Shown here piece by piece: positions 44,802 to 64,000 of a stretch of DNA of 64,000 nucleotides. The notes beneath the pieces are model-generated. The model was not told where the DNA came from. It worked only from the letters and a program-made list of their open reading frames with translations, and did not search any database. The translations under genes and the position numbers were made by a program. The DNA is from an uncultured Stakelama sp. (GTDB lineage Bacteria > Pseudomonadota > Alphaproteobacteria > Sphingomonadales > Sphingomonadaceae): assembly GCA_964413495.1 (NCBI GenBank), contig CAYPRW010000006.1, positions 15,603 to 79,602 of the forward strand, given 5' to 3'. Position 1 is the stretch's first letter; every line of letters starts with the position of its first letter.

Positions 44802-45034
44802 TGCGCACCTTTCGATCGATGGATCCGCAGTCCATGCCGTGACCCGTTCATAACCGCGCCATTCATTGCGTTGCAACGTGCGTATATGCCGGAAACCGAA
44901 AAATGCGCGTGGATCGAGCGATGCAGACCGGGCCGGGATCATGCCGGCGATGGCGAACCGCGTTGCGATCCGTTACGGCTATCATGACGGCGGACGCCGG
45001 GGTATCGGCGCGACGCGTCATCGCATGAACCGCA

Positions 45035-45793: not shown

Positions 45794-45824
45794 CCGGCGC
45801 CGGATCGCCGCCCGCGCTTCGGCG

Positions 45825-46637: not shown

Positions 46638-47350
46638 TCGGCGCGCGCCTGCGCGACAGCCGGCTATGGGCGCGCATGCTGCGCCCGCTGGCCTATCGGG
46701 TGCGCGGCTTCCCCGAGCCTGAGATGCGCCTGTTGCCGCTGCTGGTCGATCCCGCCCGTGCCGCGATCGATGTCGGCGCGCATGCCGGCAGCTATACCGC
46801 CGAACTGACCCGGCTGACCCGCCGCGTTATCGCGATCGAGCCCGATCCGGCGTCCGCCCGCCGTCTCGCCGCATCGTTTCCCGACGTGCGGGTGATCGCC
46901 GCCGCCGCCTCGGCCGGTGTCGGGCCGGCAACGCTATATTGCCCACCGGACCAGCCAGGCCTGGGCACGCTGGAACGAGGCATCGGGCGGGATGCGCCCG
47001 GCATATGCGTCCCCGCCATCGCGCTCGACACGATCGACGCCGGTGACGTCGGCTTCATCAAAATCGATGTCGAGGGGCATGAATTGAGCGTGCTGGAAGG
47101 CGCCCGATCCTTGCTCCGCGATTGCCGCCCGGCGCTGCTGATCGAGGCGGAGGCGCGCCACCGCGCCAATGCGGTGGCATCGCTCGCCGACTGGCTCGCG
47201 CCGTTCGGCTATAACGGCCTCTATCTGGATGCCGGGCGGTTGCGGCCCATCGCCCGGTTCGATTGCGCCCGCGACCAGCACGCCGGGGATGCGCCGGCGA
47301 ACGGGCCGCGTTTCGCCCGTTACATCAATAATTTCCTCTTTGTGGGATGA
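46634..47350 (+). CDS. FkbM-family methyltransferase
   Basis: IDVGAHAG, AIEP, FIKIDVEGHELSVLEG. Confidence 0.9.
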   Translation: MIGARLRDSRLWARMLRPLAYRVRGFPEPEMRLLPLLVDPARAAIDVGAHAGSYTAELTRLTRRVIAIEPDPASARRLAASFPDVRVIAAAASAGVGPATLYCPPDQPGLGTLERGIGRDAPGICVPAIALDTIDAGDVGFIKIDVEGHELSVLEGARSLLRDCRPALLIEAEARHRANAVASLADWLAPFGYNGLYLDAGRLRPIARFDCARDQHAGDAPANGPRFARYINNFLFVG

Positions 47351-48465: not shown

Positions 48466-48478
48466 TACGACCGCGTGG

Positions 48479-48523
48479 GTGCGTCGTTTGCCGGTGCTCG
48501 ATGGAATGCGCGGCATCGCGGTG
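48479..48523 (+). pseudogene. Remnant of an acyltransferase-3 5' end
   Basis: Translates as VRRLPVLDGMRGIAV, the LDGLRG.A start motif of AT3 proteins; no TM helix follows. Confidence 0.5.
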
Positions 48524-48702
48524 CGATCCCGACGACGATGCGGGCAACGTTGCCGTGACGCCGGGCGGCGGTCGCAGGTGGCGCGGCAGCCAGACCGCAT
48601 CCCGCTCCGTTTTGCCCCTCATCGCAAAATCAACCGGTTGCGGCGCATGCGGTTAACGGGCAAGCAGGGCGCCGAAGATCGGCCGATGCCGGGAGTGAGC
48701 GA

Positions 48703-49827
48703 TTGCGATTTCAACTAGCGGCCAGCCTGTCGATGCTCGCGCTGGCAGCATGCGGCGGATCGTCGTCGGGCGGCGGTGGCAGCGTCGTCGTCGTGCCTAC
48801 GCCGACCCCCAGCCCATCGCCTTCGCCAACCCCGTCACCTTCGCCCTCCCCCTCGGCGCTTGGCGGCTTCGTCCCCGCCGCTGCCGCCGAACCCACGACC
48901 GGCATCCGGCTGAAGGTCGGGAAATGCATCAACCTGGGCAATCATCTGGAAACGCCCGACGGCCTCGACTGGGGTCGTGCGCTGGTCGCGGCGGATTTCA
49001 CGATCATCCGCGATGCAGGCTTCAGCACCGTCCGTATCCCAGTAAAATGGTCGGCCCATGCGCTGACGGCGGCGCCGTACACGATCGACGCCGCATGGAT
49101 GGCGAAGGTGCAGGGAATCGTGAATTGGGCAAGCGCGGCGGGCCTCAACGTCATCCTCGACATGCATCATTATGACGAGCTCAACACGAACGCCGCGGCC
49201 CATGCCACGCGCTTTGCCGAGATGTGGCGACAGATCGGGTCGGCGTTCGCATCCGCGCCGGCCAATGTCTGGTTCGAACTCATCAACGAACCCAATAATT
49301 CACTGAACGATTCGAACCTCGTCACCATCCTCGCCCCTGCGCTGGCGGCGATCCGCTCGACCAATCCCACCCGGCGGGTCATCGTCGGCGGCCAGAATAC
49401 CAGCGACGTCAACAGCCTGGCGACACTGGCGCTGCCTTCGGATCCCTATGTCGTGCCGACCTTTCACGACTATGATCCGTTGGCGTTCACGCACCAGGGC
49501 GCGACGTGGATCGGTACCACCTACCCGCTCGGCAGGACCTATGGCACGACGGTCGACCTTGCGCAGCTGCGGAGCAATCTCGACAAGGTTCGCGCCTATA
49601 TCGCGCGGACCGGACGCGTTCCGTTCATGGGCGAATATGGCGCGATCGACATCGGCGGCGTGCCGTTGAGCGAACGCGTCAAATATTACGACACGGTCAG
49701 CGCGGCCTATGCCTCGATCGGGATCCAGGGCTGCGCCTGGGCCTATACCAACACCTTCCGGCTGCGTGAGGGCAGCGCCTGGCTGCCGGGCATGCTCGAC
49801 GCGGTGCGGACCACCACCACGCAATAG
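48703..49827 (+). CDS. Glycoside hydrolase family 5 (endoglucanase-like) lipoprotein
   Basis: Lipobox LAAC, Gly/Ser and PTPS linker, INLGN, VRIPVKW, DMHHY, FELINEP, FHDY, MGEYG. Confidence 0.92.
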   Translation: MRFQLAASLSMLALAACGGSSSGGGGSVVVVPTPTPSPSPSPTPSPSPSPSALGGFVPAAAAEPTTGIRLKVGKCINLGNHLETPDGLDWGRALVAADFTIIRDAGFSTVRIPVKWSAHALTAAPYTIDAAWMAKVQGIVNWASAAGLNVILDMHHYDELNTNAAAHATRFAEMWRQIGSAFASAPANVWFELINEPNNSLNDSNLVTILAPALAAIRSTNPTRRVIVGGQNTSDVNSLATLALPSDPYVVPTFHDYDPLAFTHQGATWIGTTYPLGRTYGTTVDLAQLRSNLDKVRAYIARTGRVPFMGEYGAIDIGGVPLSERVKYYDTVSAAYASIGIQGCAWAYTNTFRLREGSAWLPGMLDAVRTTTTQ

Positions 49828-49891
49828 CGCGGCCCGGACGATGCGACAAAGGCATTGAGCGGACCCGCCGGCGCGCGCAAAGTCTGCCGAG

Positions 49892-50185
49892 ATGATCAAC
49901 CGGATCTTCACTGCCCTGTCGCTGGGCATCGCCGCCGGGATCGCGCGCGCGCTGCTGCCGGACATCAAGACGCGCATCCAGCTTGCGGTCGCCCTGTCGC
50001 TGGCGGCGCTGTTCGAACTGTGCCTGCGCCGCCGGCTGCGGCAGCGGCCGGGCATCGCGGGGTTCGCGCTGAACGCCGCCGCGATCGTCGTCGCCACGAT
50101 CGCGGTCAAGATCGCGATCGATGGCCGCCCGCATTATCCGGAATGGGTGATCGGGGCGGCCGCCGCGATGGGCATCGTGCTTTAG
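49892..50185 (+). CDS. Small hypothetical membrane protein
   Basis: 97 aa with about four hydrophobic segments filling the gap before the ugd stop. Confidence 0.55.
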   Translation: MINRIFTALSLGIAAGIARALLPDIKTRIQLAVALSLAALFELCLRRRLRQRPGIAGFALNAAAIVVATIAVKIAIDGRPHYPEWVIGAAAAMGIVL

Positions 50186-50210
50186 GGTCTGCGCGGATCG
50201 GGACGCGCCC

Positions 50211-51518
50211 TTACCCCTTGCCGATACCGACCAGGGTGAAGCCAGCCTGTCGTGCTTCGTCGGCGGGGTAGATGTTGCGCAGGTCGACCAGCAGCGGGGC
50301 GTTGAGCAGCGATTTCATGCGGGGGAGATCGAGCGCGCGGAACGCGTCCCATTCGGTGACGATGACCAAGGCATCGGCACCGTCGGCAGCGTCATAGGGG
50401 CTGTCGGCGAACACGACGTCGTTGAGCATTGGGCGTGCCTGTTCGACCCCCTCGGGATCATAGGCCTTCACCCTGGCGCCTGCATCCTGCAGCGTCTGGA
50501 TCACCGCGATCGACGGCGCGTCGCGCATGTCGTCGGTGTTCGGTTTGAAGGTGAGGCCAAGGATCGCCACGGTCTTGCCGCGCACCTCGCCGCCCATCGC
50601 CTTGATGACCTTGCGCCCCATCGCGCGCTTGCGGCTGTCATTGACCTGCACCGTCGCCTCGACGATGCGCAACGGCGCCTCGTTGTCGTCGGCGGTCTTC
50701 AGCAGCGCCAGCGTGTCCTTGGGGAAGCATGATCCGCCATAGCCGGGGCCGGCGTTCAGGAACTTGCGCCCGATGCGGTTGTCCATGCCGATGCCGCGCG
50801 ACACCTCCTGCACATCGGCGCCGACCGCCTCGCACAGGTCGGCGATCTCGTTGATGAAGGTGATCTTGACGGCAAGGAAGGCGTTGGCGGCGTATTTGAT
50901 GAGTTCGGCCGTGCGCCGCCCGGTGAACATCACCGGCGCCGACTGATTGAGCGAAAGCGGGCGATAGATGCCGCGCATCACCTCGCTCGCGCGTTCGTCC
51001 TCGCTGCCCACCACCACGCGGTCGGGGCGCTTGAAATCCTCGATCGCCGCGCCCTCGCGCAGGAATTCCGGGTTGGAAACCACCGCGATGCCCTTGTCCG
51101 GGGCGATTCGCGCCACGATCCGCTCGACCTCGTCGCCGGTGCCGACGGGCACGGTCGATTTGGTGACGATCACCGTCGGGCCGTCGACCGCCGCCACGAT
51201 CTCTTCCGCCGCGGCGAAGACATAGGACAGGTCGGCATGGCCATCGCCGCGGCGGCTGGGCGTGCCGACCGCGATGAAGACGGCGTCCGCGCCCTTGACC
51301 CCTTCGGCCAGATCGGTGGTGAACGAAAGCCGGCCCGCCTTCACATTGCTCGCCACCAGCTCGGCCAGACCCGGCTCGAAGATCGGCATCACATTGTCGT
51401 GAAGCAGCTCGATCTTGCGCGCATCCTTGTCGACGCACACCACGTCATGCCCGAAATCCGAAAAACATGCGCCCGACACCAGTCCGACATATCCCGTGCC
51501 GATCATCGCTATGCGCAT
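50211..51518 (-). CDS. ugd: UDP-glucose 6-dehydrogenase
   Basis: IGTGYVG, AVGTP, KSTVPVG, NPEFLREG, GYGGSCFPKD, FKPNTDDMR. Confidence 0.97.
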   Translation of the reverse strand: MRIAMIGTGYVGLVSGACFSDFGHDVVCVDKDARKIELLHDNVMPIFEPGLAELVASNVKAGRLSFTTDLAEGVKGADAVFIAVGTPSRRGDGHADLSYVFAAAEEIVAAVDGPTVIVTKSTVPVGTGDEVERIVARIAPDKGIAVVSNPEFLREGAAIEDFKRPDRVVVGSEDERASEVMRGIYRPLSLNQSAPVMFTGRRTAELIKYAANAFLAVKITFINEIADLCEAVGADVQEVSRGIGMDNRIGRKFLNAGPGYGGSCFPKDTLALLKTADDNEAPLRIVEATVQVNDSRKRAMGRKVIKAMGGEVRGKTVAILGLTFKPNTDDMRDAPSIAVIQTLQDAGARVKAYDPEGVEQARPMLNDVVFADSPYDAADGADALVIVTEWDAFRALDLPRMKSLLNAPLLVDLRNIYPADEARQAGFTLVGIGKG

Positions 51519-51843
51519 CGCTAGAATCTCCAGGCTGGAACCACGAGACAGAACGGCATCGTGATCGAGCCACATCTGCCTTGTTGCGCTGCGGTATGGC
51601 GCGTCAATCCGGAAAGTCCAGCCCTATTGCACGCCGTACGCTGCCTGCGATCCTGCCTTGGCACAGCATGCCGACCGAACGTCGCGCGCATCCTCGTGCC
51701 ACCGATCGGTCGCTGGCAAACGGCATTGCGGCCCGGCGCGCGCCTGGGGCTGAAAACGCTTTTGCACCGCAGCAAGTCGTTTTACCTATTTAAATTATTA
51801 TGCTTCAAGCGGCGGCGAAACTCGCACCAGGGGGACGACGATC

Positions 51844-52713
51844 ATGATATTCAAGCCGATCCGCAAGGCCGTTTTCCCCGTTGCCGGCCTCGGCACGCGC
51901 TTCCTTCCGGCGACCAAGGCGATGCCCAAGGAAATGCTGACCGTCGTCGACAAGCCGCTGATCCAATATGCCGTCGAAGAGGCGCTGGAGGCCGGGGTCG
52001 AGCAGATCATCTTCGTCACCGGACGCGGCAAGGGCGCGCTGGAGGACCATTTCGACATCTCCTACGAGCTGGAGGCGACGATGAAGGCGCGCGGCAAGAG
52101 CCTGGCGCTGATCGAGAACATCCGGCAGAAGCCCGGATCGCCCGTCTATGTCCGCCAGCAGGAGCCGCTGGGCCTGGGTCATGCCGTGTGGTGCGCGCGC
52201 GAGATCGTCGGCGACGAGCCGTTCGCCGTCCTGCTGCCCGACGAGCTGATGGTCGGCACGCCGGGCTTCCTCAAGCAGATGGTTTCGGCCTACGAGAAAG
52301 TCGGCGGCAACGTCATCGGCGCGCTGGAAGTGCCGGACAGCGAGACCGACAAATACGGCATCATCACCCCCGGCACGCGCGACGGCCGCCTGACGCAGGT
52401 GACCGCGCTGGTCGAAAAGCCCAGGGCCGGGACCGCGCCGTCGAACCTGATGATTCCCGGCCGCTACATCCTCCAGCCCGAGGTGATGCGCATCCTCGAC
52501 AATCCCGTCACCGGCGCGGGCGGCGAGATCCAGCTGACCGACGCGATGGCGCAGCTGATCGGCCGACAGGCGTTCCACGGCTATACGTTCGACGGCCAGC
52601 GGTTCGATTGCGGCGACAAGGCCGGCTATATCCAGGCGAACCTGGCGCTCGCGCTCGCCCGCGACGATATCGGCCCGGCGGTGCGCGCCTTTGCGGAGAC
52701 GCTGATCGGCTGA
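51844..52713 (+). CDS. galU: UTP--glucose-1-phosphate uridylyltransferase
   Basis: AGLGTRFLPATKAMPKEML, LGLGHAV, VEKP, GEIQLTDA. Confidence 0.97.
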   Translation: MIFKPIRKAVFPVAGLGTRFLPATKAMPKEMLTVVDKPLIQYAVEEALEAGVEQIIFVTGRGKGALEDHFDISYELEATMKARGKSLALIENIRQKPGSPVYVRQQEPLGLGHAVWCAREIVGDEPFAVLLPDELMVGTPGFLKQMVSAYEKVGGNVIGALEVPDSETDKYGIITPGTRDGRLTQVTALVEKPRAGTAPSNLMIPGRYILQPEVMRILDNPVTGAGGEIQLTDAMAQLIGRQAFHGYTFDGQRFDCGDKAGYIQANLALALARDDIGPAVRAFAETLIG

Positions 52714-52734: not shown

Positions 52735-55155
52735 TTACCGCTCGCCGGTCTGCCAGCTGAAGCGCAGCGCGCTGACGCTGGTGGGTTTCTTGACCGGCCC
52801 GCTGCGCGTGGTCGATCCGACCAGCGCGGCGTCGATCAGATCCTCGACCGCCGTGCCCGCCGCGCCGTTGTTGCGCATCCGCGTGCCGGCCAGCGTCGGC
52901 CCCGCGGCGGCGGCGCACGCCGCGCCGTCCTCCGGCCCCGGCACCACCGGGCATTGCACCAGCCGCGCATAGGAAAGCGGCACGCCGTCGCCGACATCGC
53001 TGACCAGCAGCACGAAATCGTCGCGCAGCTGCGCGCCCGGCTGCGCATCGCTGAGATTATATTGCAGCACGCCGCTTTCGCCCGCGCGCAGCCGCGTGGG
53101 ATTGTCGGCCTTGATCCCCGGCCGCTGGTCGCGTCCGTCGAACAGCAGGATGCCGCCATCGGGCGAGAAGATCAGCGGGTTGACGTACACGTCCTCCTTG
53201 CCGGTGTTGGTCACCTTGACGAACAGCCAGTCGCAACGCTGGAAATTGAAGCTCCCCGCCTCGCTGCCGTCGCCGCCGACGCGCCTGGCCTGCGGATCGA
53301 CCGCATAGAAATCGGCGCCGGTGTCGGGACAGGCCGCGCCCGCGCCCCGCGTCTTGGGCCGCGCGACATAGAATTCGACCTTCACGTCCTTGCCCGGATC
53401 GTTGCCGGGGCCGCCGGTTTCCATCGCCGGGCTCGCCAGCACGCGCTGCAGGCGGCTGAACCGCGTCGCCTTGACCAGCGCGCCGCCGACCACGAAGCGC
53501 GTGCGCAGCGCGGTGTCGCCGCCCGCCGCGGCGATCGGCGCGAGATCGATGTCGCCGAACGCGGCGGTGACCTGGCCCGGCGGCTGGCGCAAGGTCAGCC
53601 GATCCTTGTCGAAGCCCAGGATCAGGTCGGCCGCCTGCCCCGGATCGACGAAGCTCGCGCCGATATCGGCCGGCTTGATCGCCTTGAGCGCGGCCAATGC
53701 CGCCGCCTGCGCCGCGCTCGGGCTGGCGGGCGCGGCGGGCAGCGCGATGCGATAGTCGAGCTGGATCGGCTGCTGCTCGATCGTCGCGACCAGCCGCACC
53801 TCACGCGACAGCGGCTTGCCGTCGAGGTCGCGCACGTCGTTCCATGCCTCGGCGGAAATATCGCCATAGGCGGTCGGGACGAGGATCGCCTTGTAGGCGT
53901 CGGCCTTGTCGACGCGGCCATAGAGGATCGTCTTGTCTCCGCCGGGCGAGGACAGCGCCAGGCCGATCACGGTGCCCTCGACCACGCCCTGCAATTGCCC
54001 CGCGCCCATTTCGAGCCGGTCGAGCTTGACCGGATCGGTGGTCTTGGTCTCGGCGGTGAAGACGCGCGCGGGCTTGTACACCGCCCAGCTGCCGCCGCTC
54101 GACGATGCGGCGGCGGTCTTCATCAGCCCGCCCATCACCGGCCGGTCGAGATCGCCGTCGAACTCGGGGCGCGGCGCCTTGTGCCCATCGATCCCGGCGG
54201 TGATGCGGTTGGCGAGATCGCGATAGGAATAGACGCGCGGGTTGTTCCAATTGGCCATGGTATAGACGGTCAGCAGCCCGTGCGCCGCCTGTTCCAGCGG
54301 ATCGGCATAGCGCGGCGCCTGGTATTGCTTGGCCTGTTCCTTCGACGGCACCGCCAGCAGCCCGACATAGGCGCCCCAGCCGGCCTTGCCCTTCGCCGTC
54401 TCGACCGCGAGGTCGCGAACGAAGTTGCCGTCGCTGACGGTGGCGAACTTGCGGTTGAGCTTGAGCTTCAGCTTGTCGGCGGTCGGCGCGCCATTGTCCT
54501 TGCCCGCCGCGTCGCGGTTCGAATCGCCCGAATGGCAGAAATCGGCGAGATAGGTGACGTTGCCGCCCTTGGCGCGGATCGCGTCGATCACCGCGCCGAT
54601 CTCGTCATCGGTCACCGCGTTCTGGATCTTGTCGCTGCCGTTGGCGGGGCCGGTGTCATAGGGCAGGAACACCTCGTCCAGCCCGTCCGGCTCGGAGCCC
54701 GCCACCGCCTCGTTCTGCTGCATGCCATGGCCCGAGAAGCTCAGGAGCACCTCGTCGCCCGGCTTCGTCGTATCGGCGACACGCTTGAGCGCCGCGAGGA
54801 TGTTGGCGCGCGTGCCGATGCCGTCGGGCACGACCTTGGTCTGGCGCATGCGCGGGTTGCCGCGCGCGGTCATCAGCTCGGGCGTCGGCGGATCGAGCAG
54901 CAGCGTCACGTCGCCGGGCTGCGCGCCCTCACGGATCAGCGTTTCGGCGATCAGCACCGAATCGTTGAACGCGCCGATCATCGGCGTGGCGATGCCCTCC
55001 TTGTAGTTGACCACGCCGATGATCACGGCGCGGATGCGGCCCTTCGCCTCCGGCTTGGCCTGGGGCGGCGCGGGCGGTTGCGGCGGCATCGCCGCGCCGG
55101 ACAACGCAACACCCAGGGCGATCGCCAGACATGCCAGTGCAAGCCGTTTCAACAT
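52735..55155 (-). CDS. Exported caspase-family (C14, metacaspase-like) protease with large C-terminal region (DUF4384-like end)
   Basis: Signal peptide; RAVIIGVVNY, FSGHG, EPDGLDEVFLPYD, ADFCHSG, HGLLT. Confidence 0.88.
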   Translation of the reverse strand: MLKRLALACLAIALGVALSGAAMPPQPPAPPQAKPEAKGRIRAVIIGVVNYKEGIATPMIGAFNDSVLIAETLIREGAQPGDVTLLLDPPTPELMTARGNPRMRQTKVVPDGIGTRANILAALKRVADTTKPGDEVLLSFSGHGMQQNEAVAGSEPDGLDEVFLPYDTGPANGSDKIQNAVTDDEIGAVIDAIRAKGGNVTYLADFCHSGDSNRDAAGKDNGAPTADKLKLKLNRKFATVSDGNFVRDLAVETAKGKAGWGAYVGLLAVPSKEQAKQYQAPRYADPLEQAAHGLLTVYTMANWNNPRVYSYRDLANRITAGIDGHKAPRPEFDGDLDRPVMGGLMKTAAASSSGGSWAVYKPARVFTAETKTTDPVKLDRLEMGAGQLQGVVEGTVIGLALSSPGGDKTILYGRVDKADAYKAILVPTAYGDISAEAWNDVRDLDGKPLSREVRLVATIEQQPIQLDYRIALPAAPASPSAAQAAALAALKAIKPADIGASFVDPGQAADLILGFDKDRLTLRQPPGQVTAAFGDIDLAPIAAAGGDTALRTRFVVGGALVKATRFSRLQRVLASPAMETGGPGNDPGKDVKVEFYVARPKTRGAGAACPDTGADFYAVDPQARRVGGDGSEAGSFNFQRCDWLFVKVTNTGKEDVYVNPLIFSPDGGILLFDGRDQRPGIKADNPTRLRAGESGVLQYNLSDAQPGAQLRDDFVLLVSDVGDGVPLSYARLVQCPVVPGPEDGAACAAAAGPTLAGTRMRNNGAAGTAVEDLIDAALVGSTTRSGPVKKPTSVSALRFSWQTGER

Positions 55156-55179
55156 GTTACGCTCCCGCCCATCCTATTC

Positions 55180-55275
55180 CGTCATTCCCGCGCAGGCGGG
55201 AATCCATTCTGGCTGACCCAACGGCTCAAATCGCGACGGCAGCGGCAAGGGATTCCCGCCTGCGCGGGAATGACG
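55180..55275. repeat. REP-like element: 26-bp inverted repeat pair
   Basis: CGTCATTCCCGCGCAGGCGGGAATCC (55180-55205) and its exact reverse complement (55250-55275); each arm itself palindromic. Confidence 0.85.
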
Positions 55276-55308
55276 AAGAAGAGGGTTCATGAAATCATCG
55301 ATCCACGC

Positions 55309-56004
55309 TCAGTTCGACACCAGGATCGCGCGCGTCCACACGCGGCCCTTGTTCCGCAGGATGATACGATATTCCTCGGTGCGGTTCGGCGTCCAGCGGC
55401 ACGACAGGTCGCGCCGCGCCACCGCCGCGGTGCCGGGCGGCGGGCGATCGATGCACGCCACCCGTCCCTGGGCATCGGTCACCGCCAGCTCCAGCGCCGA
55501 ATCGCCGTCGCCACGCACGCGCACCAGCGCCAGCCGGCCGCCTTCGGCGCGCGCGCGCATCGTCAGCGTGCGATCGGCGGGCAGGTCGTGGGTATAGACG
55601 ATCGCGGCGGGGAGGATGCCCTTGCTCGCCTCGGCCTGCGCCGCTTCGATCGCCGCCAGTCTGTCGGGATCGCCCGCCGCCCAGCCCTGCGCCTCGCGCA
55701 GCAGCGCGGCGGGCTCGGTCACCGGCAGTTCGTCGCTCGTCCGCGCGCGGCCCAGCACCAGCGGTGCGTTCTCGGCCGGCACCAGCACGAAATCGCCCTG
55801 GCGCAGCATGTTGGCGGCGACCAGCATCATCGCCACATCCTTGTCGGCGCGCGCACGGGCGATCAGGTCGCGCACCAGCTCGGCGCGCTCGATCGTCGCG
55901 TCGGAGGCGGCGGCGTCGGGCGTCACAGGGTCGATCGTGCGCGCGGCCGCGCCGGCGGTGCCGAGCGCGGCCAATACGAGAGCAAGAAGAATGTGCAACT
56001 TCAT
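55309..56004 (-). CDS. Secreted protein B: helical domain + PPC-like beta domain
   Basis: Signal MKLHILLALVLAALGTAGAAA; GDGDSALELAVTD.QG...C.D...C.W.P; paralogue of 58282..58974. Confidence 0.75.
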   Translation of the reverse strand: MKLHILLALVLAALGTAGAAARTIDPVTPDAAASDATIERAELVRDLIARARADKDVAMMLVAANMLRQGDFVLVPAENAPLVLGRARTSDELPVTEPAALLREAQGWAAGDPDRLAAIEAAQAEASKGILPAAIVYTHDLPADRTLTMRARAEGGRLALVRVRGDGDSALELAVTDAQGRVACIDRPPPGTAAVARRDLSCRWTPNRTEEYRIILRNKGRVWTRAILVSN

Positions 56005-56062
56005 CACCGCCAGCCTTGAACCCGTTTCGGGGAAGGCGCGAGGGTCAGAGTCTGACGGTAAA

Positions 56063-56194
56063 ATCCTCCCCGGCACGGGGAGGGGGACCGCCCGCACAGC
56101 GGGTGGTGGAGGGGGCGTGCGGCAGGCGTTGCGCTGCGTGGCGCGCGCCCTCCGTCAGCACTGCGTGCTGCCACCTCCCCGTGCCGGGGAGGAT
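56063..56194. repeat. REP-like palindromic element, family 2, copy 1
   Basis: Terminal IR ATCCTCCCCGGCACGGGGAGG / CCTCCCCGTGCCGGGGAGGAT with internal GGGGACC...GGTGGTGGAGGGG. Confidence 0.8.
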
Positions 56195-56218
56195 CGCGGC
56201 GCAACGCCATCTGCACGC

Positions 56219-58012
56219 TTATTTCCCCGGTTCGCCGACCAGCGTGAACGCCGCCCAGTATTTGGGGCTGACGAACTGGCCGGTGCCTTCGTTGCGCACC
56301 GTCTTCATCGCCGCCTGCAACGCGCGGGCGCGGCCGGCGATATCGCCCTTCTGGATGTTGTCGAAGGTCTGCTGCATCAGCAGCGAGGTCGCCGCATCGC
56401 TCACCGCCCAGTGGCTGACCAGCAGCGAGCGCGCGCCGGCGAAGAAGAAGGCGCGGGCCAGGCCCGACAGCCCCTCCGCGCCGGCCTTGCCACTCGACGC
56501 CGCGGTGTTGCACGCCGACAGCGCGACCAGATCGGCGGTCATCTTGAGTCCGGCCACCTCCGACGCGGTGAGCAGCCCGTCGTCCTGCGCCGTCGCCGCC
56601 TTGGGCGGGGTGAAGACCAGGCCCGGCTCGGCATTGTCGCCGACCTCGGTCGCAAGCAGCCCATGGGTCGAAAAGACCACGAAGCGCGCGCCGGGGATCG
56701 ACTTGCTCGCCTTGACCGCGCTCTCGGTCGCGGCGTCGCCCAGCACCACCTCCGCCTTGCTGCCGAAGGTCTTGCCCAGGCTCTCCAGCTCGGCCCTGGC
56801 CTGCGGCAGATAGGCGAGCGCGCGCAGTTTCTCGGTATCGGCAAGCTTGCCCTTGTACATCTGTCCGGCGAGGTCGGGCGTCACCGAACGGCCCGTCGCG
56901 GCGGTATATTGGCCGAGCAATGTCGGCGCGCCATAGGCGGCCAGCGCCACGCCGCCGGTCTTGGCCTGCGCATGGCTGGTCGAGGCGGCCTTGACGTCGC
57001 AGCCGGGATGCGCGTCCGCCGGATTGGCGATCAGCAGGCAGCGCAGCGCACGCAGCGACGACACCGACGGCAGTTCGGCCAGCGCATATCTGTCGATCAG
57101 CCACGGGCTGGTCGCGACCGCGCTGGGATCATTGTCGGCCCCCTGCGGCGGCGCGGTGACCAGCAGCGCGAGCGGCAGCGAAGTCAGCGCGCCGGTGACG
57201 TTGGTGAGCAGCACCTGCTTGCCCTGCAACACCGGTTCGACCGGCGCGATCAGTTCCTTGTAGATCTCGTGCGCCAGCTTGCGGTCGAACGCCTTGCCCT
57301 GCGGCGCGGCGGCGGTGGCGGCGCTCGCGGGCGGCGGCTGGCGGGCGGAGCCGCGCGCGCCGTCGACTTCCATGCTGGCGCGCAGCGACGCGACCTTCTG
57401 TGCCAGCGCGCCTTCCTTCATCGCTTCCGAACGCGACCAGCTCGCCTTCTCGCGCGTGATCGCCCAGGTGTAGCTGGCGTCGTCCGAGACGAGCACCATC
57501 AGCATCGCCTCGTCCGGATTGAGCAGCCGCTGCACCTGCGCGATGTCGAGCGCCTTGGGCCGCGTCAGGTCGAAATATTGCGGGAAATCCTTGCCGATCT
57601 TCGTCTCGATCGCGGTCACCTCGTCGCGGATCGCGGCGCGGCGCTGGGTCAGCGCGCGGCGTTCCTCCTCGGGCACGGCGCTGCCGCGCTCGATCAGCGC
57701 GCTGAACTGGCGATCGACCGCCTCCAGCTCGGCCAATTTCTTGTCGCGTTCCTGTTCGAGCACGGCGAGCGGGCCGCCGCCCGAGGCGAAGCGCGCCGTC
57801 ACGCGATCGACCGCGGCGGCCGCGCCCGAGATCAGCGCATATTGCGCGGCGACAAAGGCTTCGGAACGCAGCACCTCGGGTGAGGGCACCGGCTCGGCCT
57901 GGACATCGCTAGCGGGTGCGGGGGCGGCGGGTGCGGGCGCAGGGGCGCTCTGGGCGGTGAGCATCGCGGCCAGCACGGGCAGCGCGACGAATTTGCGGAA
58001 CTTGGCCTTCAT
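56219..58012 (-). CDS. Exported CHAT-domain (caspase HetF-associated) protease without TPR array
   Basis: Start MKAKFRKFVALPVLAAML + PAPA linker; coiled coil, FPQYFDL, LYLPQARAEL-type segment, FSTHG, DGLLTASEV, LSACNT, VSHWAVSD, PKYWAAF. Confidence 0.9.
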   Translation of the reverse strand: MKAKFRKFVALPVLAAMLTAQSAPAPAPAAPAPASDVQAEPVPSPEVLRSEAFVAAQYALISGAAAAVDRVTARFASGGGPLAVLEQERDKKLAELEAVDRQFSALIERGSAVPEEERRALTQRRAAIRDEVTAIETKIGKDFPQYFDLTRPKALDIAQVQRLLNPDEAMLMVLVSDDASYTWAITREKASWSRSEAMKEGALAQKVASLRASMEVDGARGSARQPPPASAATAAAPQGKAFDRKLAHEIYKELIAPVEPVLQGKQVLLTNVTGALTSLPLALLVTAPPQGADNDPSAVATSPWLIDRYALAELPSVSSLRALRCLLIANPADAHPGCDVKAASTSHAQAKTGGVALAAYGAPTLLGQYTAATGRSVTPDLAGQMYKGKLADTEKLRALAYLPQARAELESLGKTFGSKAEVVLGDAATESAVKASKSIPGARFVVFSTHGLLATEVGDNAEPGLVFTPPKAATAQDDGLLTASEVAGLKMTADLVALSACNTAASSGKAGAEGLSGLARAFFFAGARSLLVSHWAVSDAATSLLMQQTFDNIQKGDIAGRARALQAAMKTVRNEGTGQFVSPKYWAAFTLVGEPGK

Positions 58013-58046
58013 GTCAGCCCCCACACTATCCGGGCCGCTGTTCCCG

Positions 58047-58226
58047 ACCCTCCCCGGTGCGGGGAGATGGCATCGCCCTTCGACGTCGTCTGCGGCGTCG
58101 TTCAGAACGAACTGCGCCTCAGGAGCAGCGATGACGGAGGGGGCGGGCCGCACGTGTTGCGTTTCGTGGCGGGCCCCCTCCACCACCGCCTGCGGCGGCG
58201 GTCCCCCTCCCCGTGCCGGGGAGGAT
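58047..58226. repeat. REP-like palindromic element, family 2, copy 2 (inverted)
   Basis: CCCTCCACCACC...GGTCCCCCTCCCCGTGCCGGGGAGGAT mirrors the left half of copy 1; degenerate other arm CCCTCCCCGGTGCGGGGAG. Confidence 0.75.
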
Positions 58227-58236
58227 CGAAGAACCG

Positions 58237-58266
58237 CCGCCCCGGATGCGCGGGCATCCGGGGCGG
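58237..58266 (-). terminator. Hairpin after secreted protein A
   Basis: CCGCCCCGGATGC-GCGG-GCATCCGGGGCGG 13-bp perfect stem, weak U tract. Confidence 0.55.
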
Positions 58267-58281
58267 ACGGCAATTTTTGGC

Positions 58282-58974
58282 TTAGTTGGTCACCAGCGCG
58301 ATGCCGGTGCCGCTGTCGCCATGGTTGATCGCCTGGACCGAGAACGGACCGGTCCAGATCGGGTTCACGCGGCAATAGAGCGTGACGTTGTGCGACATGT
58401 CCTGGCAGACCAGATTGCCGTTTTCGTCGAAGATCTTGAGATCGACCGGCGTCGCCGAATCGCGGCGCGCGCCGACGACCAGCGGTTCACCGCCGCGCGC
58501 GGCGAAGCGCACGGTCCAGGTGGTCTGGCCCGGCACGTACTGCACGGTGCGGATCGCGCCGCCGACCACGCCCTTCGACGTTTCGGCCTGCGCCGCCTCG
58601 ACCGCCGCCAGGATGTCGGCATCGCCATTGGCGAGCGACTTGGCTTCGGCGAACAGGTCGGCCGCGGTCGCGCCCTTGGCTTCGCCGGTGCCCTTGCCGG
58701 TGCCCTCGATCTTGCCCTTGTCGGTGCCTTCCTTGACGGTGATCGAATCGACCATCTTGGCCGCGACGATCATCGCGCGCGCGTCCTTGTTGGTGCGCGC
58801 ATAGTCGGCCAGGCGATAGCCCAGCGCCAGCGTGTCGACCGCCTTCGAGCTTTCGGTCGCCGGCACGTCCTTGTCGCCAAGGTTCGTACCCTTCTTGTCC
58901 TGCGCGATCGACGGCGCGGCAATCATGCTCGCGGCGGCGAGCGCCAGCGCCATCTTCTTGTTAAGCTTAACCAT
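58282..58974 (-). CDS. Secreted protein A: helical domain + PPC-like beta domain
   Basis: GAGGAG RBS; signal KKMALALAAASMIAAPSIA; VDLKIFDENGNLVCQD...YCRVNPIWTGPF...N.G; ends LVTN. Confidence 0.85.
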   Translation of the reverse strand: MVKLNKKMALALAAASMIAAPSIAQDKKGTNLGDKDVPATESSKAVDTLALGYRLADYARTNKDARAMIVAAKMVDSITVKEGTDKGKIEGTGKGTGEAKGATAADLFAEAKSLANGDADILAAVEAAQAETSKGVVGGAIRTVQYVPGQTTWTVRFAARGGEPLVVGARRDSATPVDLKIFDENGNLVCQDMSHNVTLYCRVNPIWTGPFSVQAINHGDSGTGIALVTN

Positions 58975-59192
58975 TACCACGTCTCCTCACTCTCCAGGCA
59001 CTGCTTCCCGAGCAGGCCGTGCAAAACTGATCCCTCGATCAGGCAGGTTCTTCTGTAAGGTGGCCCCCGCCGCGGCGACACTAACAGTTTCAGTCGCCTT
59101 TTCCAGCCGATTCGTCGCAATTCGCTTGCCCCGCCGCGCGACGATATCGGTCGATTTGCAACCACTTGCGCCGCACGCCGACAAGGCCGGGG

Positions 59193-60620
59193 CTAGCGCG
59201 CCAGGCGCAACTGGATCAGGCTGTTGCCGCGCGCGACGAACAGCACCGCGCCGCCGGCGACGTTCTGGAAGGCGCGGGCGAGCTGCGCCGCGCTCTGCAC
59301 CTGTTCGCCATTGACGCCGACGATGATGTCGCCCGCGACCAGGCCGGAACGCGCCGCCGCCGAATCCGGCTGGACCGTGGCGACCACCGCGCCGCGCAGT
59401 TGCGGCGGCACCTTGTCGCCGGCGTTGACGTCGCGGAACGTCGCGCCCAGCGCCGCCAGCCCGCCGCCGCCCGCCGGCGGGCGCGTGACGACCACCGGCC
59501 GGGGCGTCTCGACCGTCACCGTCGTCCGCGCGGTCTGGCCGGCGCGGCGATAGCCGAGCGCCACGCTCTTGCCCGGCTCCAGCGTGCCGAAGATCGCGGT
59601 CAAGTTGCCCGGTCCCTCGATCTGGCGGCCGTCGATCTCGGTGATGACGTCGCCGGCCTTGAGCCCCGCGCGCGCCGCCGGGCTGTCCGCCTGCACTTCC
59701 GACACCAGCGCGCCGCGCGTCGAACCGCTGCCCGCCGCCTCGCGCGTCACCGGGCCGACCGTCACGCCGATGCGCCCGCGCCGGACGGTGCCGTTGCGGC
59801 GCAACTGGTCGGCGATCGCCAGCGCCATGTTGACCGGAATCGCAAAGGCGATGCCGGCATTGTCGCCCGATTTCGACCAGATCGCGGTGTTGATGCCGAT
59901 CAGCCGCCCGCGGCTGTCGATCAGCGCGCCGCCCGAATTGCCGCTGTTCACCGCGGCGTCGGTCTGGATGAAGTCCTGGAACCCGTCGCCGATGCCGGTG
60001 CGGCCGAGCCCCGAGATCACGCCCATCGTCAGCGTCTGGTCGAAGCCGAAGGGATAGCCGACCGCGAAGGCGAGGTCGCCGACCTGGATCTTCGCGCTGT
60101 CGCCGATCGCCATCGCCGTCAGGTTCGGCGCGTTGATCCGGATCAGCGCGATGTCGGTCTGCGGATCGCGGCCGACCAGCGTCGCATCGACCACGCGGCC
60201 GTCATAGAGCTGGACCTGGAACGCCTGTCCCTTTTCGACGACATGGTTGTTGGTCAGGATCTCGCCCCGCGCCGCGTCGATGATGACGCCCGAACCGCTG
60301 CCGATCGGGGTCGGCGCGGGCTGGCCGGGCTGGCGCGGCTGCACGCCGGGGACCGCCGACTGGCCGCGAAAGGGGTCGTCGTCGGGCGCCTGTTGCGGCT
60401 GTTCCTGCTGCTGTTGCGCCTGTTGCTGCGGCGGCTGGCCCAGCACGATCACCTTGACCACCGTGGGCGCGACCGCGCGCAGATCCTTGGCATAGGAATA
60501 GACGCCGCGTTCGGCATCGTACGGCACGGTCTGCGCCGCGACGCCGGCCGGCGTCAGGCTCGATGCCACCATCGCCGCCGCCGCGACCCCGGCGAGCATC
60601 GAATGCAGTTTACGCTTCAT
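59193..60620 (-). CDS. HtrA/DegP-family serine protease with two PDZ domains
   Basis: Signal peptide; GSGSG, TNNHV, DIAL, IQTDAAVNSGNSGG, DSPAARAGLKAGD. Confidence 0.95.
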   Translation of the reverse strand: MKRKLHSMLAGVAAAAMVASSLTPAGVAAQTVPYDAERGVYSYAKDLRAVAPTVVKVIVLGQPPQQQAQQQQEQPQQAPDDDPFRGQSAVPGVQPRQPGQPAPTPIGSGSGVIIDAARGEILTNNHVVEKGQAFQVQLYDGRVVDATLVGRDPQTDIALIRINAPNLTAMAIGDSAKIQVGDLAFAVGYPFGFDQTLTMGVISGLGRTGIGDGFQDFIQTDAAVNSGNSGGALIDSRGRLIGINTAIWSKSGDNAGIAFAIPVNMALAIADQLRRNGTVRRGRIGVTVGPVTREAAGSGSTRGALVSEVQADSPAARAGLKAGDVITEIDGRQIEGPGNLTAIFGTLEPGKSVALGYRRAGQTARTTVTVETPRPVVVTRPPAGGGGLAALGATFRDVNAGDKVPPQLRGAVVATVQPDSAAARSGLVAGDIIVGVNGEQVQSAAQLARAFQNVAGGAVLFVARGNSLIQLRLAR

Positions 60621-60635
60621 GCTGAATCAATCCCC

Positions 60636-62027
60636 TCAATCCCCGGCGCCTTCCTTGACGCATGGCAGCGAAATCTCAATGCGGAATCCGTTTGCGGTGT
60701 TGAAAGCGTGGACATCGCCACCCGCGCGCAACGCCACCGTCTTGACGAAGGCGAGGCCCAGGCCGTGGCTGTCGGCGCCGCCGGTCGAATAGCCGGGTTC
60801 GAAGATGCGCTCGATCCGGGCGGGGTCGATGCCCGGCCCGTCATTCTCCACCGCGATGCGCACCGTTTCGCCGTCATCGGCCACCCCGCAACGAATCGCG
60901 GTTGCCGGTGTGGCGAACTTGACCGCATTGCCCAGGACATTCTCGATCATCCGGTCGAACAGGTCGCCCGCCACCCGCACCTGCGCCGGCCGCGCGTCCA
61001 GATCGAACGCCAGATCCTTGTCGTCGCCCAGATAGACGAACATGTCGTCGATCAGCCGGCGCACCCGCTCGGCCGGGTCGACGATGTCCGCCCCGGCCCC
61101 GCGCGACACCTCCGCATCGATGATGCCCAGCAGCATGCGGCAGCGTTTGTCCACGGTCCCCAGCTTGGCGTCGGCCTCGGCGATCAGCGGTTCGCCCGGC
61201 GTCTTCGCCTCGAGCGCCTCCAGATGCCGCCGCGCGACCATCACCGGGCCGCGCAGATCGTGCGCGACGTGGCGATGCAATCGCCGCAGCCCGCCGATCA
61301 TGTCCTGCGACCGCCCCAGCAGCGCGTTGAGGTGGTGCGCCAGCAGGCGGAATTCGGGCTGGCCCGCATCCGCCCCGGCACGTTCGGAAAAGCCGCTGCG
61401 GTCGGCGCGGTCGAGCAGCGCGTTGAACCGGTCGAGCCGCGCGCGCCAGCCGCGCAGCAGCGCCCAGGCGAGCAGCCCGGCAAGCAGCACGAACGCCAGC
61501 GCCACCCCGGCCGCGAGGAAATATGCCCGCATCACCAGCCGTGGGTCGGGCGAATAGATGCGCGCGCTCAGGAACGTGCCCGCCCCGCCGGCATCCGCGA
61601 TCACGCCGATCGCCGTGGCGTCCGCGCGCTGGCAGGCGGTGCCGGCCGGCACCCCGAAGCGCAGCTCGCCCGATCCGCCGGGCCAGGCGAGCCGCGGCGT
61701 CCCGCTCACGGCGCCGTCCGCCCTGCGATAGAGGAACAGCGCCCGCGCCCGCTCGCCGCTGTCGCAGCGCCCGCCATCGGTCGCCTCCTGCGCGCGCGCC
61801 GCGACCAGCGTCAGCACCTCCGCCGTTCGCGCTTCCGCCGACATTCCGCGCGGCAGGCTGGCGATCTTGCTCGACAGCACCGCCGCATCGGCCTGGGCGC
61901 GCACCAGCGCCAGTTCGCGCGCGTTCATCGCCACCATCTGCAACAGGCCCAGCGTCAGCCCGGCCAGCGCCACCGCCGCCAGCGCGCCGATGACCAGGGT
62001 GGTGCGGAGCGGAAGCCAGCGGAGCAT
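60636..62027 (-). CDS. Membrane sensor histidine kinase (HAMP, HisKA, HATPase)
   Basis: Two TM, H-box VAHDLRGP, NVLGNAVKF, NDGPGI, GLGL. Confidence 0.9.
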   Translation of the reverse strand: MLRWLPLRTTLVIGALAAVALAGLTLGLLQMVAMNARELALVRAQADAAVLSSKIASLPRGMSAEARTAEVLTLVAARAQEATDGGRCDSGERARALFLYRRADGAVSGTPRLAWPGGSGELRFGVPAGTACQRADATAIGVIADAGGAGTFLSARIYSPDPRLVMRAYFLAAGVALAFVLLAGLLAWALLRGWRARLDRFNALLDRADRSGFSERAGADAGQPEFRLLAHHLNALLGRSQDMIGGLRRLHRHVAHDLRGPVMVARRHLEALEAKTPGEPLIAEADAKLGTVDKRCRMLLGIIDAEVSRGAGADIVDPAERVRRLIDDMFVYLGDDKDLAFDLDARPAQVRVAGDLFDRMIENVLGNAVKFATPATAIRCGVADDGETVRIAVENDGPGIDPARIERIFEPGYSTGGADSHGLGLAFVKTVALRAGGDVHAFNTANGFRIEISLPCVKEGAGD

Positions 62028-62032
62028 CGCGC

Positions 62033-62842
62033 CTAGCGTCCGCCCTCCAGCCCGGCCAGGTTGCGCAGTGCGAAGCCCTGCGCCCAGATATTCGTCACCA
62101 GCGGATGATAGTCGTCCGGAATGTCGGGGCACTGGCGCTTGAGCGACTTGCGCAGCCGCTTGATCGCCTGATCGACGGTATTGGCGAATTCCTCGGGGAA
62201 ATGGCTCCACCCCTTGCCGATCCAGCAACGGTCCCACAGCATCGACTGGGACAGCGGATTGCCGCGTTCCTTGTAAAGCTCGACCAATATGTCCGCCTCG
62301 CGGCTGGTCAGCTGAAGCAGCCGGCCGTTGCAGCGCACGTCCCTGGTGTCGGCATCGACCTCCAGCGGCGCGCAGGTCCAGCCCTTGCTGCGCATCGTCG
62401 GCTTGCGGCGGCGCAGCTGCGCGGCGACGCGCGCGACCAGTTCCTCGCTGGTCGCGGGCTTGGGGACGTAATCGTCGGCGCCGCGCGCGATCAGGCCGTG
62501 GATGCGCTGATCCTCGCCGCCGAGCAGCGAATAGACCAGCGCGGGCACGTCCGGATCGGTCTTCATCCCGTTCGGCCGGCGGCGCACACGGTCAAGCACC
62601 TCCAGCCCCTCGACCCCCGGATTGATGCGGTCGAGCACGATCACATCATAGGCCTGCGCCGCCAGCGCCGCGAGCGCGGCGTCGCCGGTCTCGACCAGAT
62701 CGACCGCCGCGCAGCCCGCCGCCTCCAGCGCGGCCTTCATCTCCGCGCCGATCTCGTCCTCAAGGATCAGCGCGCGACAGCCGGCAAAGGTGTCGGCGAT
62801 GCCCTGCGCCGCCTCGGCGTCCAGCCTGAGCGCGGCCATCAC
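62033..62842 (-). CDS. OmpR-family response regulator
   Basis: LILEDE, VIVLDR, GADDYVPKP, LTSRE, VDQAIKRLRK, WAQGF. Confidence 0.88.
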   Translation of the reverse strand: MMAALRLDAEAAQGIADTFAGCRALILEDEIGAEMKAALEAAGCAAVDLVETGDAALAALAAQAYDVIVLDRINPGVEGLEVLDRVRRRPNGMKTDPDVPALVYSLLGGEDQRIHGLIARGADDYVPKPATSEELVARVAAQLRRRKPTMRSKGWTCAPLEVDADTRDVRCNGRLLQLTSREADILVELYKERGNPLSQSMLWDRCWIGKGWSHFPEEFANTVDQAIKRLRKSLKRQCPDIPDDYHPLVTNIWAQGFALRNLAGLEGGR

Positions 62843-64000
62843 AGCGGCCCCCGCGGAAAGCGGCGCGGCACGCCGGGGCGGCGCGCCTTGGCCGCCTGCG
62901 CGCTCAGCGGCAGCGCGACATGCAGCGTGCCCTGACCGCCGCGCCGGATGCGCAGCACCGCCACGCCGCGCCTCGATCCGGTGATCGCGGCCATCGCCGC
63001 CGCCGGATCGCCGACCGCCGCGCCGTCGATCGCGAGCAGTTCGTCGCCTTCATACAGGCCATAGATCTGACCCACCGATGCATCCTCCATCTTGCCCACC
63101 AGCAGCCTGCCGGCGGCGTCCTTGCGAAATTCGAATCCCAGCCTGAAGCGGCCGTCGCTGTCCAGCCCGCCCGACAGCGCCAGCGCCGCCGCCTTGCCGC
63201 GCTCGCCGGCGATGTCGTCATCGGCCTCCAGCGCAACGGCGAGGTCGAGCGGCTTGCCGCCGCGCACGATCCGGATGCCGACCCGGTCGCCCGGCCGCGT
63301 CTCGATCAACGCCAGCGACAGGTCGCGCACCACGTCGAGCTTGCGGCCTTCGACCGACAGCAGCAGGTCGCCGATCTTCACGCCTGCCCGATCCGCGGCG
63401 CCGCCAGGGGTCACCGCGTCGATGATGAGGCCGCTGTTGCCCGGCGCGCCCAGCGCCTCGGCCATGCCCGCGTCGGCGCTGCTCGCGGTGACGCCCAGCC
63501 GTCCGCGCACGACCTTGCCGTCGGCGATCAGCCGGGGCGCGATCCTGGCCGCCAGTTCGGCGGGAATCGCAAGGCCGATGCCGATGTCGAAGATGGTTTC
63601 CGGCGGCGTCGCGGTGTTGATGCCGATCACTTCCCCCTCCTCGGTGATCAGCGGCCCCCCACTGTTGCCCGGATTCAGCGCGGCGTCATGCTGGATGAAA
63701 TCGACCGGCCACGCAACGTCATAGGCGCGGTCATAGCCGCTGACGATGCCCGAAGTGACCGAAAACCGGTTCCCCAGCGGATTGCCGATCGCATAGACTT
63801 TCGTGCCCAGCGGCAGCCGGGACGACGATGCGAGCCTGAGCACCGGCAGCGGTGCGTCGGGCACGATCCGCACGATCGCCAGGTCGGTGCGCCCGTCGCG
63901 GCCGATCACCGTGCCGGCATAGCGTTTGCCGTCGGCAAAGGTCACCTCGACCCGGTCGAGCCCGGCAACGACATGCGCGTTGGTGAGAATGAGGCCGGAA
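62839..64000 (-). CDS. Second HtrA/DegP-family serine protease (5' end beyond window)
   Basis: Frame open to window end: SGLILTNAHVV, TDLAIV, IQHDAALNPGNSGGPL, PDZ GGAADRAGVKIGD. Confidence 0.92.
   Translation of the reverse strand, partial: SGLILTNAHVVAGLDRVEVTFADGKRYAGTVIGRDGRTDLAIVRIVPDAPLPVLRLASSSRLPLGTKVYAIGNPLGNRFSVTSGIVSGYDRAYDVAWPVDFIQHDAALNPGNSGGPLITEEGEVIGINTATPPETIFDIGIGLAIPAELAARIAPRLIADGKVVRGRLGVTASSADAGMAEALGAPGNSGLIIDAVTPGGAADRAGVKIGDLLLSVEGRKLDVVRDLSLALIETRPGDRVGIRIVRGGKPLDLAVALEADDDIAGERGKAAALALSGGLDSDGRFRLGFEFRKDAAGRLLVGKMEDASVGQIYGLYEGDELLAIDGAAVGDPAAAMAAITGSRRGVAVLRIRRGGQGTLHVALPLSAQAAKARRPGVPRRFPRGPL

Follow-up and report, generated by a model that had tools for sequence, protein, structure and literature searches.

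Nine co-oriented genes on the minus strand form a module at one end of the window, that is, the whole 64,000-nucleotide stretch of an uncultured Stakelama sp. genome analysed here (G000:C6:15603-79602; the genome scanned comprises 2.87 Mb and is 99.9% complete). They encode, in order, a TPR protein, HtrA1, a response regulator (RR), a sensor histidine kinase (HK), HtrA2, protein A, a CHAT protease, protein B and a caspase-like protease (Table 1). A preliminary description of this DNA had listed the eight genes from HtrA1 to the caspase, with the correct order and orientation; it overlooked the division between TPR and CHAT chains and a conserved site in A and B, as well as the TPR gene, which lies outside the window. 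The HtrA1, RR, HK and HtrA2 genes are coupled, with gaps of -4, 5 and 15 nucleotides between them. Pfam searches with the module open reading frames (ORFs) recovered Peptidase_C14 (E 7.7e-12), CHAT (1.6e-49), Trypsin_2 with PDZ (twice), HisKA/HATPase and Response_reg/Trans_reg_C, and the four proteases do have the intact catalytic motifs previously ascribed to them: THG450...SAC501 (CHAT), GHG143...DFC207 (caspase) and GNSGG (both HtrAs). CHAT and the caspase each match once in the entire genome, namely in this module. The likely start positions are 58012 for CHAT, 58974 for A, 56004 for B and 62027 for HK; longer ORF starts for CHAT and B were rejected because they would run through palindromic repeats.

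Table 1. Genes and candidate elements of the module (window coordinates unless stated otherwise)
Feature	Position	Strand	Characteristics
TPR-only protein, 558 aa	G000:C6:79969-81645 (window-equivalent 64367-66043, wholly beyond the window)	-	TPR_12 (E 9e-39), no CHAT
HtrA1, 477 aa	62839..64000, on to window-equivalent 64272	-	signal-like segment, trypsin domain with GNSGG, PDZ
Response regulator, OmpR type	62033..62842	-	receiver and Trans_reg_C; 4-nt overlap with HtrA1 stop
Sensor histidine kinase, 463 aa	60636..62027	-	two membrane helices, periplasmic domain of ~130 aa, H-box HVAHDLRGP
HtrA2, 475 aa	59193..60620	-	signal-like segment, trypsin domain with GNSGG, two PDZ
Conserved non-coding elements upstream of A	59027..59094	-	GACTGAAACTGTTAGTGT and palindrome CTGATC-N4-GATCAG; from alignment of 11 intergenic regions and genome scan
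Protein A, 230 aa	58282..58974	-	signal-like segment, helical domain, linker, PPC-like jelly roll with Cys pair
Candidate cleavage site of A, after K134 in S133-K134-G135	58570..58578	-	residue conservation
CHAT protease, 597 aa	56219..58012	-	signal-like segment, no TPR array, H450/C501, loop R220
Protein B, 231 aa, A paralogue	55309..56004	-	retains S127-K128-G129 at 55618-55626
Metacaspase-type protease, 806 aa	52735..55155	-	signal-like segment; D65, S141, H143, D205, C207; loop R214, R761
Three intergenic palindromic repeats	55180-55275, 56063-56194, 58045-58226	.	occur dispersed in the genome, at ~74 and 13 places

The module is conserved as a unit among close relatives. One genome scan yielded 19 loci, 15 of them close (Sphingomonas-type): the nine-gene order is complete in 13 of the 15, the remaining two being truncated by contig ends, and A-CHAT-B-caspase is present in all 15. 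Protein A is 98% identical to that of the Sphingomonas tagetis locus, which places the host in Sphingomonas or very close to it. The A family was found in 15 of 300 genomes of the genus (12 with close orthologues), 6 of 400 of the class and 9 of 400 of the phylum, the latter two counts being possible underestimates, with few candidates scored per genome. At E<=1e-10 the family comprises 997 clusters, with Atlas clusters in Pseudomonadota and Bacteroidota; a metagenome scan with a single protein gave no match, and no A-family match was present in a phage collection. For more distant relatives we pooled loci L023-L126 without L036, L037 and the 15 close loci, all picked by A alone; the 96 of them that had full-length A were sorted into 59 groups, of which 31 reach 4 kb or more on both sides. 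In these 31 dereplicated groups, CHAT lies no more than 6 kb from A in 16 and a caspase in 12 (either one in 23), an HtrA or trypsin does so in 15, and 7 have none of these at that distance. The genes are co-located in other genomes as well, and chance clustering was rejected on the 15 close loci and the 23 of 31 distant groups. Rearranged versions also occur. In Blastomonas (L023), HtrA1-RR-HK-HtrA2-A-CHAT is followed by four TPR-only genes and B up to the end of the locus; HK-A-A-caspase fusion is the arrangement in L024 and L025, and L026 has A alone. A Pseudosulfitobacter plasmid carries caspase-A divergent from HtrA-RR-HK, as well as caspase-trypsin-helical repeat protein-A-CHAT.

The caspase matches PF00656 with 45.8 bits (cut-off 21.4), and its nearest solved relatives are metacaspases (Yca1, E 3e-29; Foldseek, E 7e-10). 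Across 61 aligned sequences, H143 and C207 are invariant, as are D65 and D205, which align with the Yca1 motifs GCIND and DSCHSG. Matched by motif position, D65, S141 and D205 are the counterparts of D95, S156 and D211 in TbMCA2, which are substrate residues of an enzyme family that favours Arg/Lys (PMC4357240; here and below, published systems are compared through the available portions of the reports, unless stated otherwise). Judged from these residues, the pocket is of the metacaspase type, with a predicted preference for Arg/Lys. R214, seven residues past the catalytic Cys, and R761 are likewise invariant in the 61 sequences and lie in or beside loops with a predicted local distance difference test (pLDDT) score below 50; another Arg followed by a small residue occurs at positions 777-792 in 60 of 61. 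Activation of MaOC1 involves a cut after Arg219 (PMC7475262), and the cuts that LcCaspase makes in its partner fall at putative R-G sites that are conserved (bioRxiv 2025.11.14.688446). The predicted pocket and the conserved R/K-G sites described below agree with one another, as would be expected if the caspase cut there. The C-terminal region of the caspase has DUF4384-like features, which we treat as a lead only. The caspase_w_EACC1 model scored below its cut-off (18.5 versus 140 bits), and no EACC1/Pepco-type Pfam family was matched among 150 A members.

Proteins A and B are indeed paralogues (33% identity over 181 aa), as previously described. Neither matched Pfam, including the PPC domain (PF04151), which is matched by 21 of 150 A-family members at E<=0.01; the Atlas cluster is 11% PPC. 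The model of A (mean pLDDT 92) is helical at 41-130, passes through a coil at 131-139 and then forms eight strands starting at 140, with short strands also in the pro-part. The linker contains R/K in 146 of 150 family members, followed by G in 142; the dipeptide is present in 139. By comparison, in the columns immediately before the site (126-132) the commonest residue reaches only 0.22-0.48 (n = 150). The site lies in the coil, the block of lowest pLDDT past residue 30 (80 versus 94-98), and is followed in the family by a conserved G-x-V-G-G-P. The strand domain (140-230) aligns with Tk-SP (Z 9.6, root-mean-square deviation 1.6, 94 residues) and with the ColH binding domain (Z 9.2); overall, C-terminal domains of proteases are tied with GOLD domains at Z 8-9.6, and a viral fold search returned generic jelly-roll matches only. 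Orthologues of A have a median identity of 86%. By a crude index, built on four reference genes because six of ten motifs gave no gene, A has the strongest codon bias of the genome; given this bias and its own conserved upstream element, A looks like an abundant product. A third A paralogue is present in 8 of the 15 close loci, with up to three divergent paralogues per locus, and some paralogues carry Cys-rich segments directly past the site. An A-type jelly roll was also observed in a 676-aa signal-bearing protein (L046 9411-11441), in which about five copies by eye are arranged in tandem, without the helical part or a nearby protease.

The CHAT protease matches PF12770 with 169 bits and retains THG and SAC in all 21 aligned sequences, mostly close relatives, as well as R220 in a loop (21 of 21). 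Its ORF has no TPR or SAVED match in Pfam, and comparison with solved sequences gave no meaningful relative. By contrast, TPR-family matches are present in 59 longer relatives, whose alignment with the window CHAT begins only at residue ~490. The TPR gene is the least conserved member of the module, with a median identity of 57% to orthologues versus 77-93% for the other module genes. Extra TPR-only genes are present in 10 of the 15 close loci, copies inside one close locus being 25-38% identical. Every TPR-only protein ends with an F..V..AW-like helix, which by eye precedes the CHAT part in several fusions. Since one constant protease is accompanied by variable repeat proteins, the pattern is that of swappable receptors, which suggests that the TPR genes are plug-in sensors, and we lean towards the view that the separate TPR and CHAT chains rebuild a TPR-CHAT protein in trans.

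Export to the periplasm is very probable, judging from predicted features of the module proteins. Signal segments were assessed by eye and with a simple hydrophobicity rule, which flags seven of the nine module proteins, leaving out RR and the TPR protein (signal-like by eye only) and flagging HK through its first membrane helix. The signal peptides previously reported for CHAT, the caspase, A, B and HtrA2 are signal-like by this rule, as is that of HtrA1, which is complete in the contig. Among orthologues, with several candidate starts permitted per gene, the rule flags 15 of 15 caspases, 16 of 16 CHAT proteins, 24 of 24 A, 14 of 16 B, 14 of 14 HtrA1, 15 of 15 HtrA2, 21 of 25 TPR proteins and none of 14 RR, and among wider relatives 140 of 150 A-family members and 39 of 42 caspases, compared with a background of 156 of 560 ordinary ORFs of the genome (28%). 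Furthermore, Cys residues co-occur in pairs in A (C190/C201: both 110, neither 32, one 8; n = 150) and in the caspase (C609/C641 42/18/1 and C735/C747 27/34/0 for both/neither/one; n = 61), and hence are disulphide-like, as expected in an oxidising compartment. Because the module contains no secretion gene, the periplasm is the default compartment.

RR is the most conserved module gene (median 93%). The best NCBIfam matches of HK are stress and metal sensors, all below cut-off, and both HtrAs score below the TIGR02037 cut-off (399.6 and 303.2 versus 416.2). HK/RR genes stand beside A in many alphaproteobacterial-type loci, often divergent from A-caspase. With at most one mismatch, a TGACA-N5-TGTCA box precedes 5 of 12 A genes that have RR nearby, compared with 2 of 88 A genes lacking it and 3 of 1500 random windows, and it is also found in two of three plasmid regions outside its derivation set. 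The conserved element at 59027-59094 in the window is a candidate promoter or regulator site; a sigma-70 promoter scan remained at chance level. Several other loci have extracytoplasmic function (ECF) sigma genes and single-pass partners in place of HK/RR, and all eight of these candidate anti-sigmas (two families, two near-duplicate pairs) carry R-G within ~25 aa past the membrane helix. A Gln-rich insertion before the protease core of HtrA2 (window 60390-60420) is variable in orthologues and absent in L023 and L047.

The preliminary description envisaged an exported proteolytic cascade tied to HK/RR. Gene linkage, the Arg/Lys-Gly site, the Arg/Lys pocket and the palindromic box in RR-bearing relatives lend circumstantial support to this proposal, from which we infer cleavage, the order of events and export. 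In the scheme that we favour, a foreign or damaged periplasmic protein would be bound by a variable TPR protein, which would turn CHAT on; CHAT would then cleave the caspase in its loop at R214, rendering the caspase active; the caspase would in turn cut A and B at the [ST][RK]-G linker, freeing the small jelly-roll binding domain; and the HtrAs together with HK/RR would relay the event into increased expression of the module, in a feedback. The parts of this scheme differ in standing. It is probable that one or other of the two clan CD proteases cuts A and B after R/K. The role of HK/RR, aided by the HtrAs, in converting the event into higher module expression is somewhat favoured, whereas the position of CHAT upstream of the caspase, acting through a cut at R214, is an even call. 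The chances of the whole chain, an Arg/Lys-specific periplasmic cascade from TPR through CHAT and caspase to A/B, appear a shade below even, and those of envelope surveillance of foreign or damaged proteins, for instance during attack by phages or competitors, as its purpose, somewhat lower still. It is also conceivable, if unlikely, that the module exemplifies a widespread 'humoral' immune-like cascade of the envelope with a logic akin to complement or clotting, in which interchangeable TPR receptors would act on a shared CHAT, Arg-Gly cuts would proceed via caspase, trypsin/HtrA and the abundant pro-protein A, the freed jelly roll would coat, tag or polymerise on the intruder, and HK/RR or a cleavable anti-sigma would amplify the response.

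Several observations weigh against the proposed cascade. CHAT and caspase both lie within 6 kb of A in only 5 of the 31 distant groups, so that an obligatory CHAT-then-caspase order is not universal, and the 7 of 31 groups without CHAT, caspase or HtrA/trypsin include 4 from genomes with another A-caspase locus. R160-G161, inside the folded domain of A, is kept in 89 of 150 members, and R-G dipeptides can therefore be structural. A profile of the TPR C-terminus gave a significant match before the CHAT part in none of the 59 fused proteins. As for the link to HK, its periplasmic domain lacks a conserved R-G; furthermore, the TGACA-N5-TGTCA box was derived from four of the loci that it scores, and the window's own site fits it with three mismatches, which is chance level. 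With regard to defence, the locus has no defence-island context, being flanked by housekeeping genes, and PADLOC gave generic caspase and protease matches only. The preliminary description saw no gasdermin, Cas or NLR-like gene: genome-wide, Cas1, the one Cas family searched, had no matches and NACHT stayed below its cut-off, and no gasdermin was present among the flanking ORFs, to which that search was confined.

The main competing explanations concern the role of A and B. They might be substrate-like inhibitors, or baits, restraining the exported proteases, the true targets of which would be other envelope proteins such as HtrA/trypsin zymogens or anti-sigmas. There is a precedent in PCi, which is both cut by PCaspase and inhibits it (bioRxiv 2023.06.23.546230), and the predicted abundance of A, its strong conservation (median identity 86%) and its occurrence with either CHAT or caspase, with differing output modules, fit this explanation; indeed, given the latter pattern, A's partner may be the protease and not a receptor. 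However, the up to three divergent paralogues per locus, together with the conserved G-x-V-G-G-P and jelly-roll residues, suggest a product with a function of its own, and the jelly roll also occurs in tandem in L046, devoid of helical part and nearby protease; we regard this explanation as unlikely, if by no means negligible. Alternatively, A and B could be pro-subunits of a surface fibre, coat or adhesin, from which the proteases would remove the helical pro-part, allowing the jelly rolls to polymerise in a manner resembling the maturation of type V pili by Arg-gingipain. The top codon bias of A, the several paralogues, reminiscent of major and minor subunits and in some cases Cys-rich just past the site, the short strands within the pro-part, and a jelly roll shared with collagen-binding domains and, weakly, with Ena2A fibres (E 7e-4) would all be compatible with such a role. 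Yet the module lacks an outer-membrane export, anchor or lipoprotein gene, the fold matches are generic (Z <= 9.6), and the variable TPR genes and the R-G sites of the anti-sigmas are left unaccounted for, making a fibre improbable.

A further explanation dispenses with order altogether: the locus would be an envelope-stress or turnover regulon, in which the two HtrAs and further accessory proteases are induced by HK/RR, A serves as a chaperone or binding protein, and R/K-G has a structural role. An HtrA gene adjoining a two-component pair is a standard stress arrangement, and the sub-threshold matches of HK to stress and metal sensors, the housekeeping flanks and the structural R160-G161 are all in line with it. 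Nevertheless, such a regulon does not account for the same R-[GSA] in loops of unrelated proteins, for the linkage to clan CD proteases in 23 of 31 groups, for the rarity of the family (15 of 300 genus genomes) or for the diversification of the TPR genes, and of the explanations considered we give it the least credence.

The cascade that we favour has several published counterparts. In the Haliangium type III-B CRISPR system, SAVED-CHAT activates PCaspase (bioRxiv 2023.06.23.546230). Similar to that SAVED-CHAT/PCaspase/PCi/PCc-sigma set, the module places a CHAT and a caspase gene in the same locus as small partner proteins and an element of transcriptional control; unlike it, a nucleotide-triggered and CRISPR-linked system, the module shows no SAVED or Cas1 match, all of its proteases carry a signal-like end, its candidate sensor is a TPR protein on a chain of its own, and it includes HtrAs and HK/RR. 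The preliminary description held that characterised bacterial CHAT/caspase proteins are all cytoplasmic, which is incomplete given the periplasmic TPR-CHAT protein DdvA (PMC11506125) and the signal-peptide-like metacaspases, which were counted in 2012 without an assigned function (PMC3501461). DdvA of Myxococcus xanthus has a His-Cys dyad and is proposed to sense a protein signal and pass it to transcription (PMC11506125, PMC6061681), its signal and CHAT activity being described as still open (PMC11506125). The module likewise comprises TPR and CHAT parts with a His-Cys dyad, predicted to be periplasmic, and a proposed transcriptional output as in DdvA-DdvS. However, whereas DdvA is a single membrane anti-sigma chain, here TPR and CHAT are predicted to be separate soluble chains, CHAT begins with a signal-like segment, and caspase, HtrAs and A/B are added; the output is HK/RR, with an ECF pair in some relatives and no sigma gene in the module. 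In terms of its parts, the module would thus resemble SAVED-CHAT/PCaspase placed outside the cytoplasm and DdvA split into soluble parts, with the defining features of both being absent.

The LcCaspase-LcHydrolase pair is similar in that a caspase stands beside the gene of a candidate substrate with conserved Arg-Gly sites, cutting having been demonstrated for LcCaspase (bioRxiv 2025.11.14.688446). The text of that paper does not mention signal peptide, periplasm, secreted, CHAT, HtrA or two-component, and the ten effector families named in its available part include no helical-plus-PPC protein; no catalytic or pore-forming signature was found in A. With the metacaspases and orthocaspases Yca1, TbMCA2 and MaOC1 the caspase shares the fold, the dyad, the acidic substrate pocket and the likely activation cut after Arg, and differs in its predicted export, its C-terminal extension of 450 aa, its disulphide-like pairs of Cys residues and the gene cluster dedicated to it. 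Finally, PDZ-bearing HtrA genes with an OmpR-type pair recall HtrA stress modules of the DegP/DegS type, from which the module departs in that two HtrAs, both below the TIGR02037 cut-off, bracket the pair and lie among clan CD proteases. In agreement with the preliminary description, our search of full-text literature, with supplements and most subscription papers outside its coverage, found no description of the module or of the A family, and the available portion of PMC8195603 contains nothing on exported systems of this sort; the nearest published cases are the periplasmic TPR-CHAT protein DdvA and the cytoplasmic CHAT-to-caspase cascade.

Exported caspase-like and TPR-CHAT proteins are common in bacteria, and to our knowledge almost none has known substrates or triggers. 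The module offers candidate substrates in the form of a family of ~1000 clusters for which a single cut site is predicted. The soluble, split sensor and protease halves, together with cultured hosts (Sphingomonas tagetis, Blastomonas marina and Pseudosulfitobacter), make the role of a periplasmic clan CD protease directly testable. If the TPR genes do encode swappable receptors, the module would represent a programmable protease switch.

Other A-bearing loci have features of their own. A locus recorded as Prosthecochloris (L013) contains an A locus 87% identical to that of Sphingomonas with the same flanks and probably is a mis-binned contig. In Rhodobacterales-type loci, exported trypsin-type zymogens adjoin the caspase and carry a eukaryote-like activation site, R-IIGG or R-VIGG (L041 6197-7270 and L127 9997-11043). 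In the lower-GC loci L055, L065-L068, L078, L115 and L123, A is accompanied by a set of four genes (unknown, trypsin, unknown, CHAT) and, unlike in the window, by nearby genes with RyR, TIR, Macro and FGE-sulfatase domains, which gives these loci a conflict-system flavour. Between two A genes of L029 (8953-11104) lie a signal-bearing protein with a Hint/intein-like segment and a Gly-Ser tail and a Sel1/TPR-like protein (labels assigned by eye). The Stakelama genome itself contains a second, unlinked A-like pair behind a large membrane-protein gene (G000:C8:66700-67600; L037 4705-5597, minus strand), consisting of a helical protein of 141 aa that lacks a signal segment and a signal-bearing protein of ~155 aa that retains S-R-G and the jelly roll; among the matches listed, a similar short match was present in 11 of the 12 genus genomes with a close orthologue.

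Within the module, Rfam gave no match, and the three intergenic palindromic repeats are probably outside the mechanism. Two of them occupy spots where the nearest relative, L008, carries an extra A paralogue and an extra TPR gene. A recent foreign island was rejected, the G+C content of the module being 0.69-0.71 versus 0.677 for the contig and the upstream flank being the same in close loci. One flank is a galU-like nucleotidyltransferase gene, and the other is a gene that we take, by its motifs, to be hppD. A polysaccharide-type cluster adjoins the module (window 43572-52713), with ugd, galU and, by eye, glycosyltransferase-, acetyltransferase- and glycoside-hydrolase-like ORFs.

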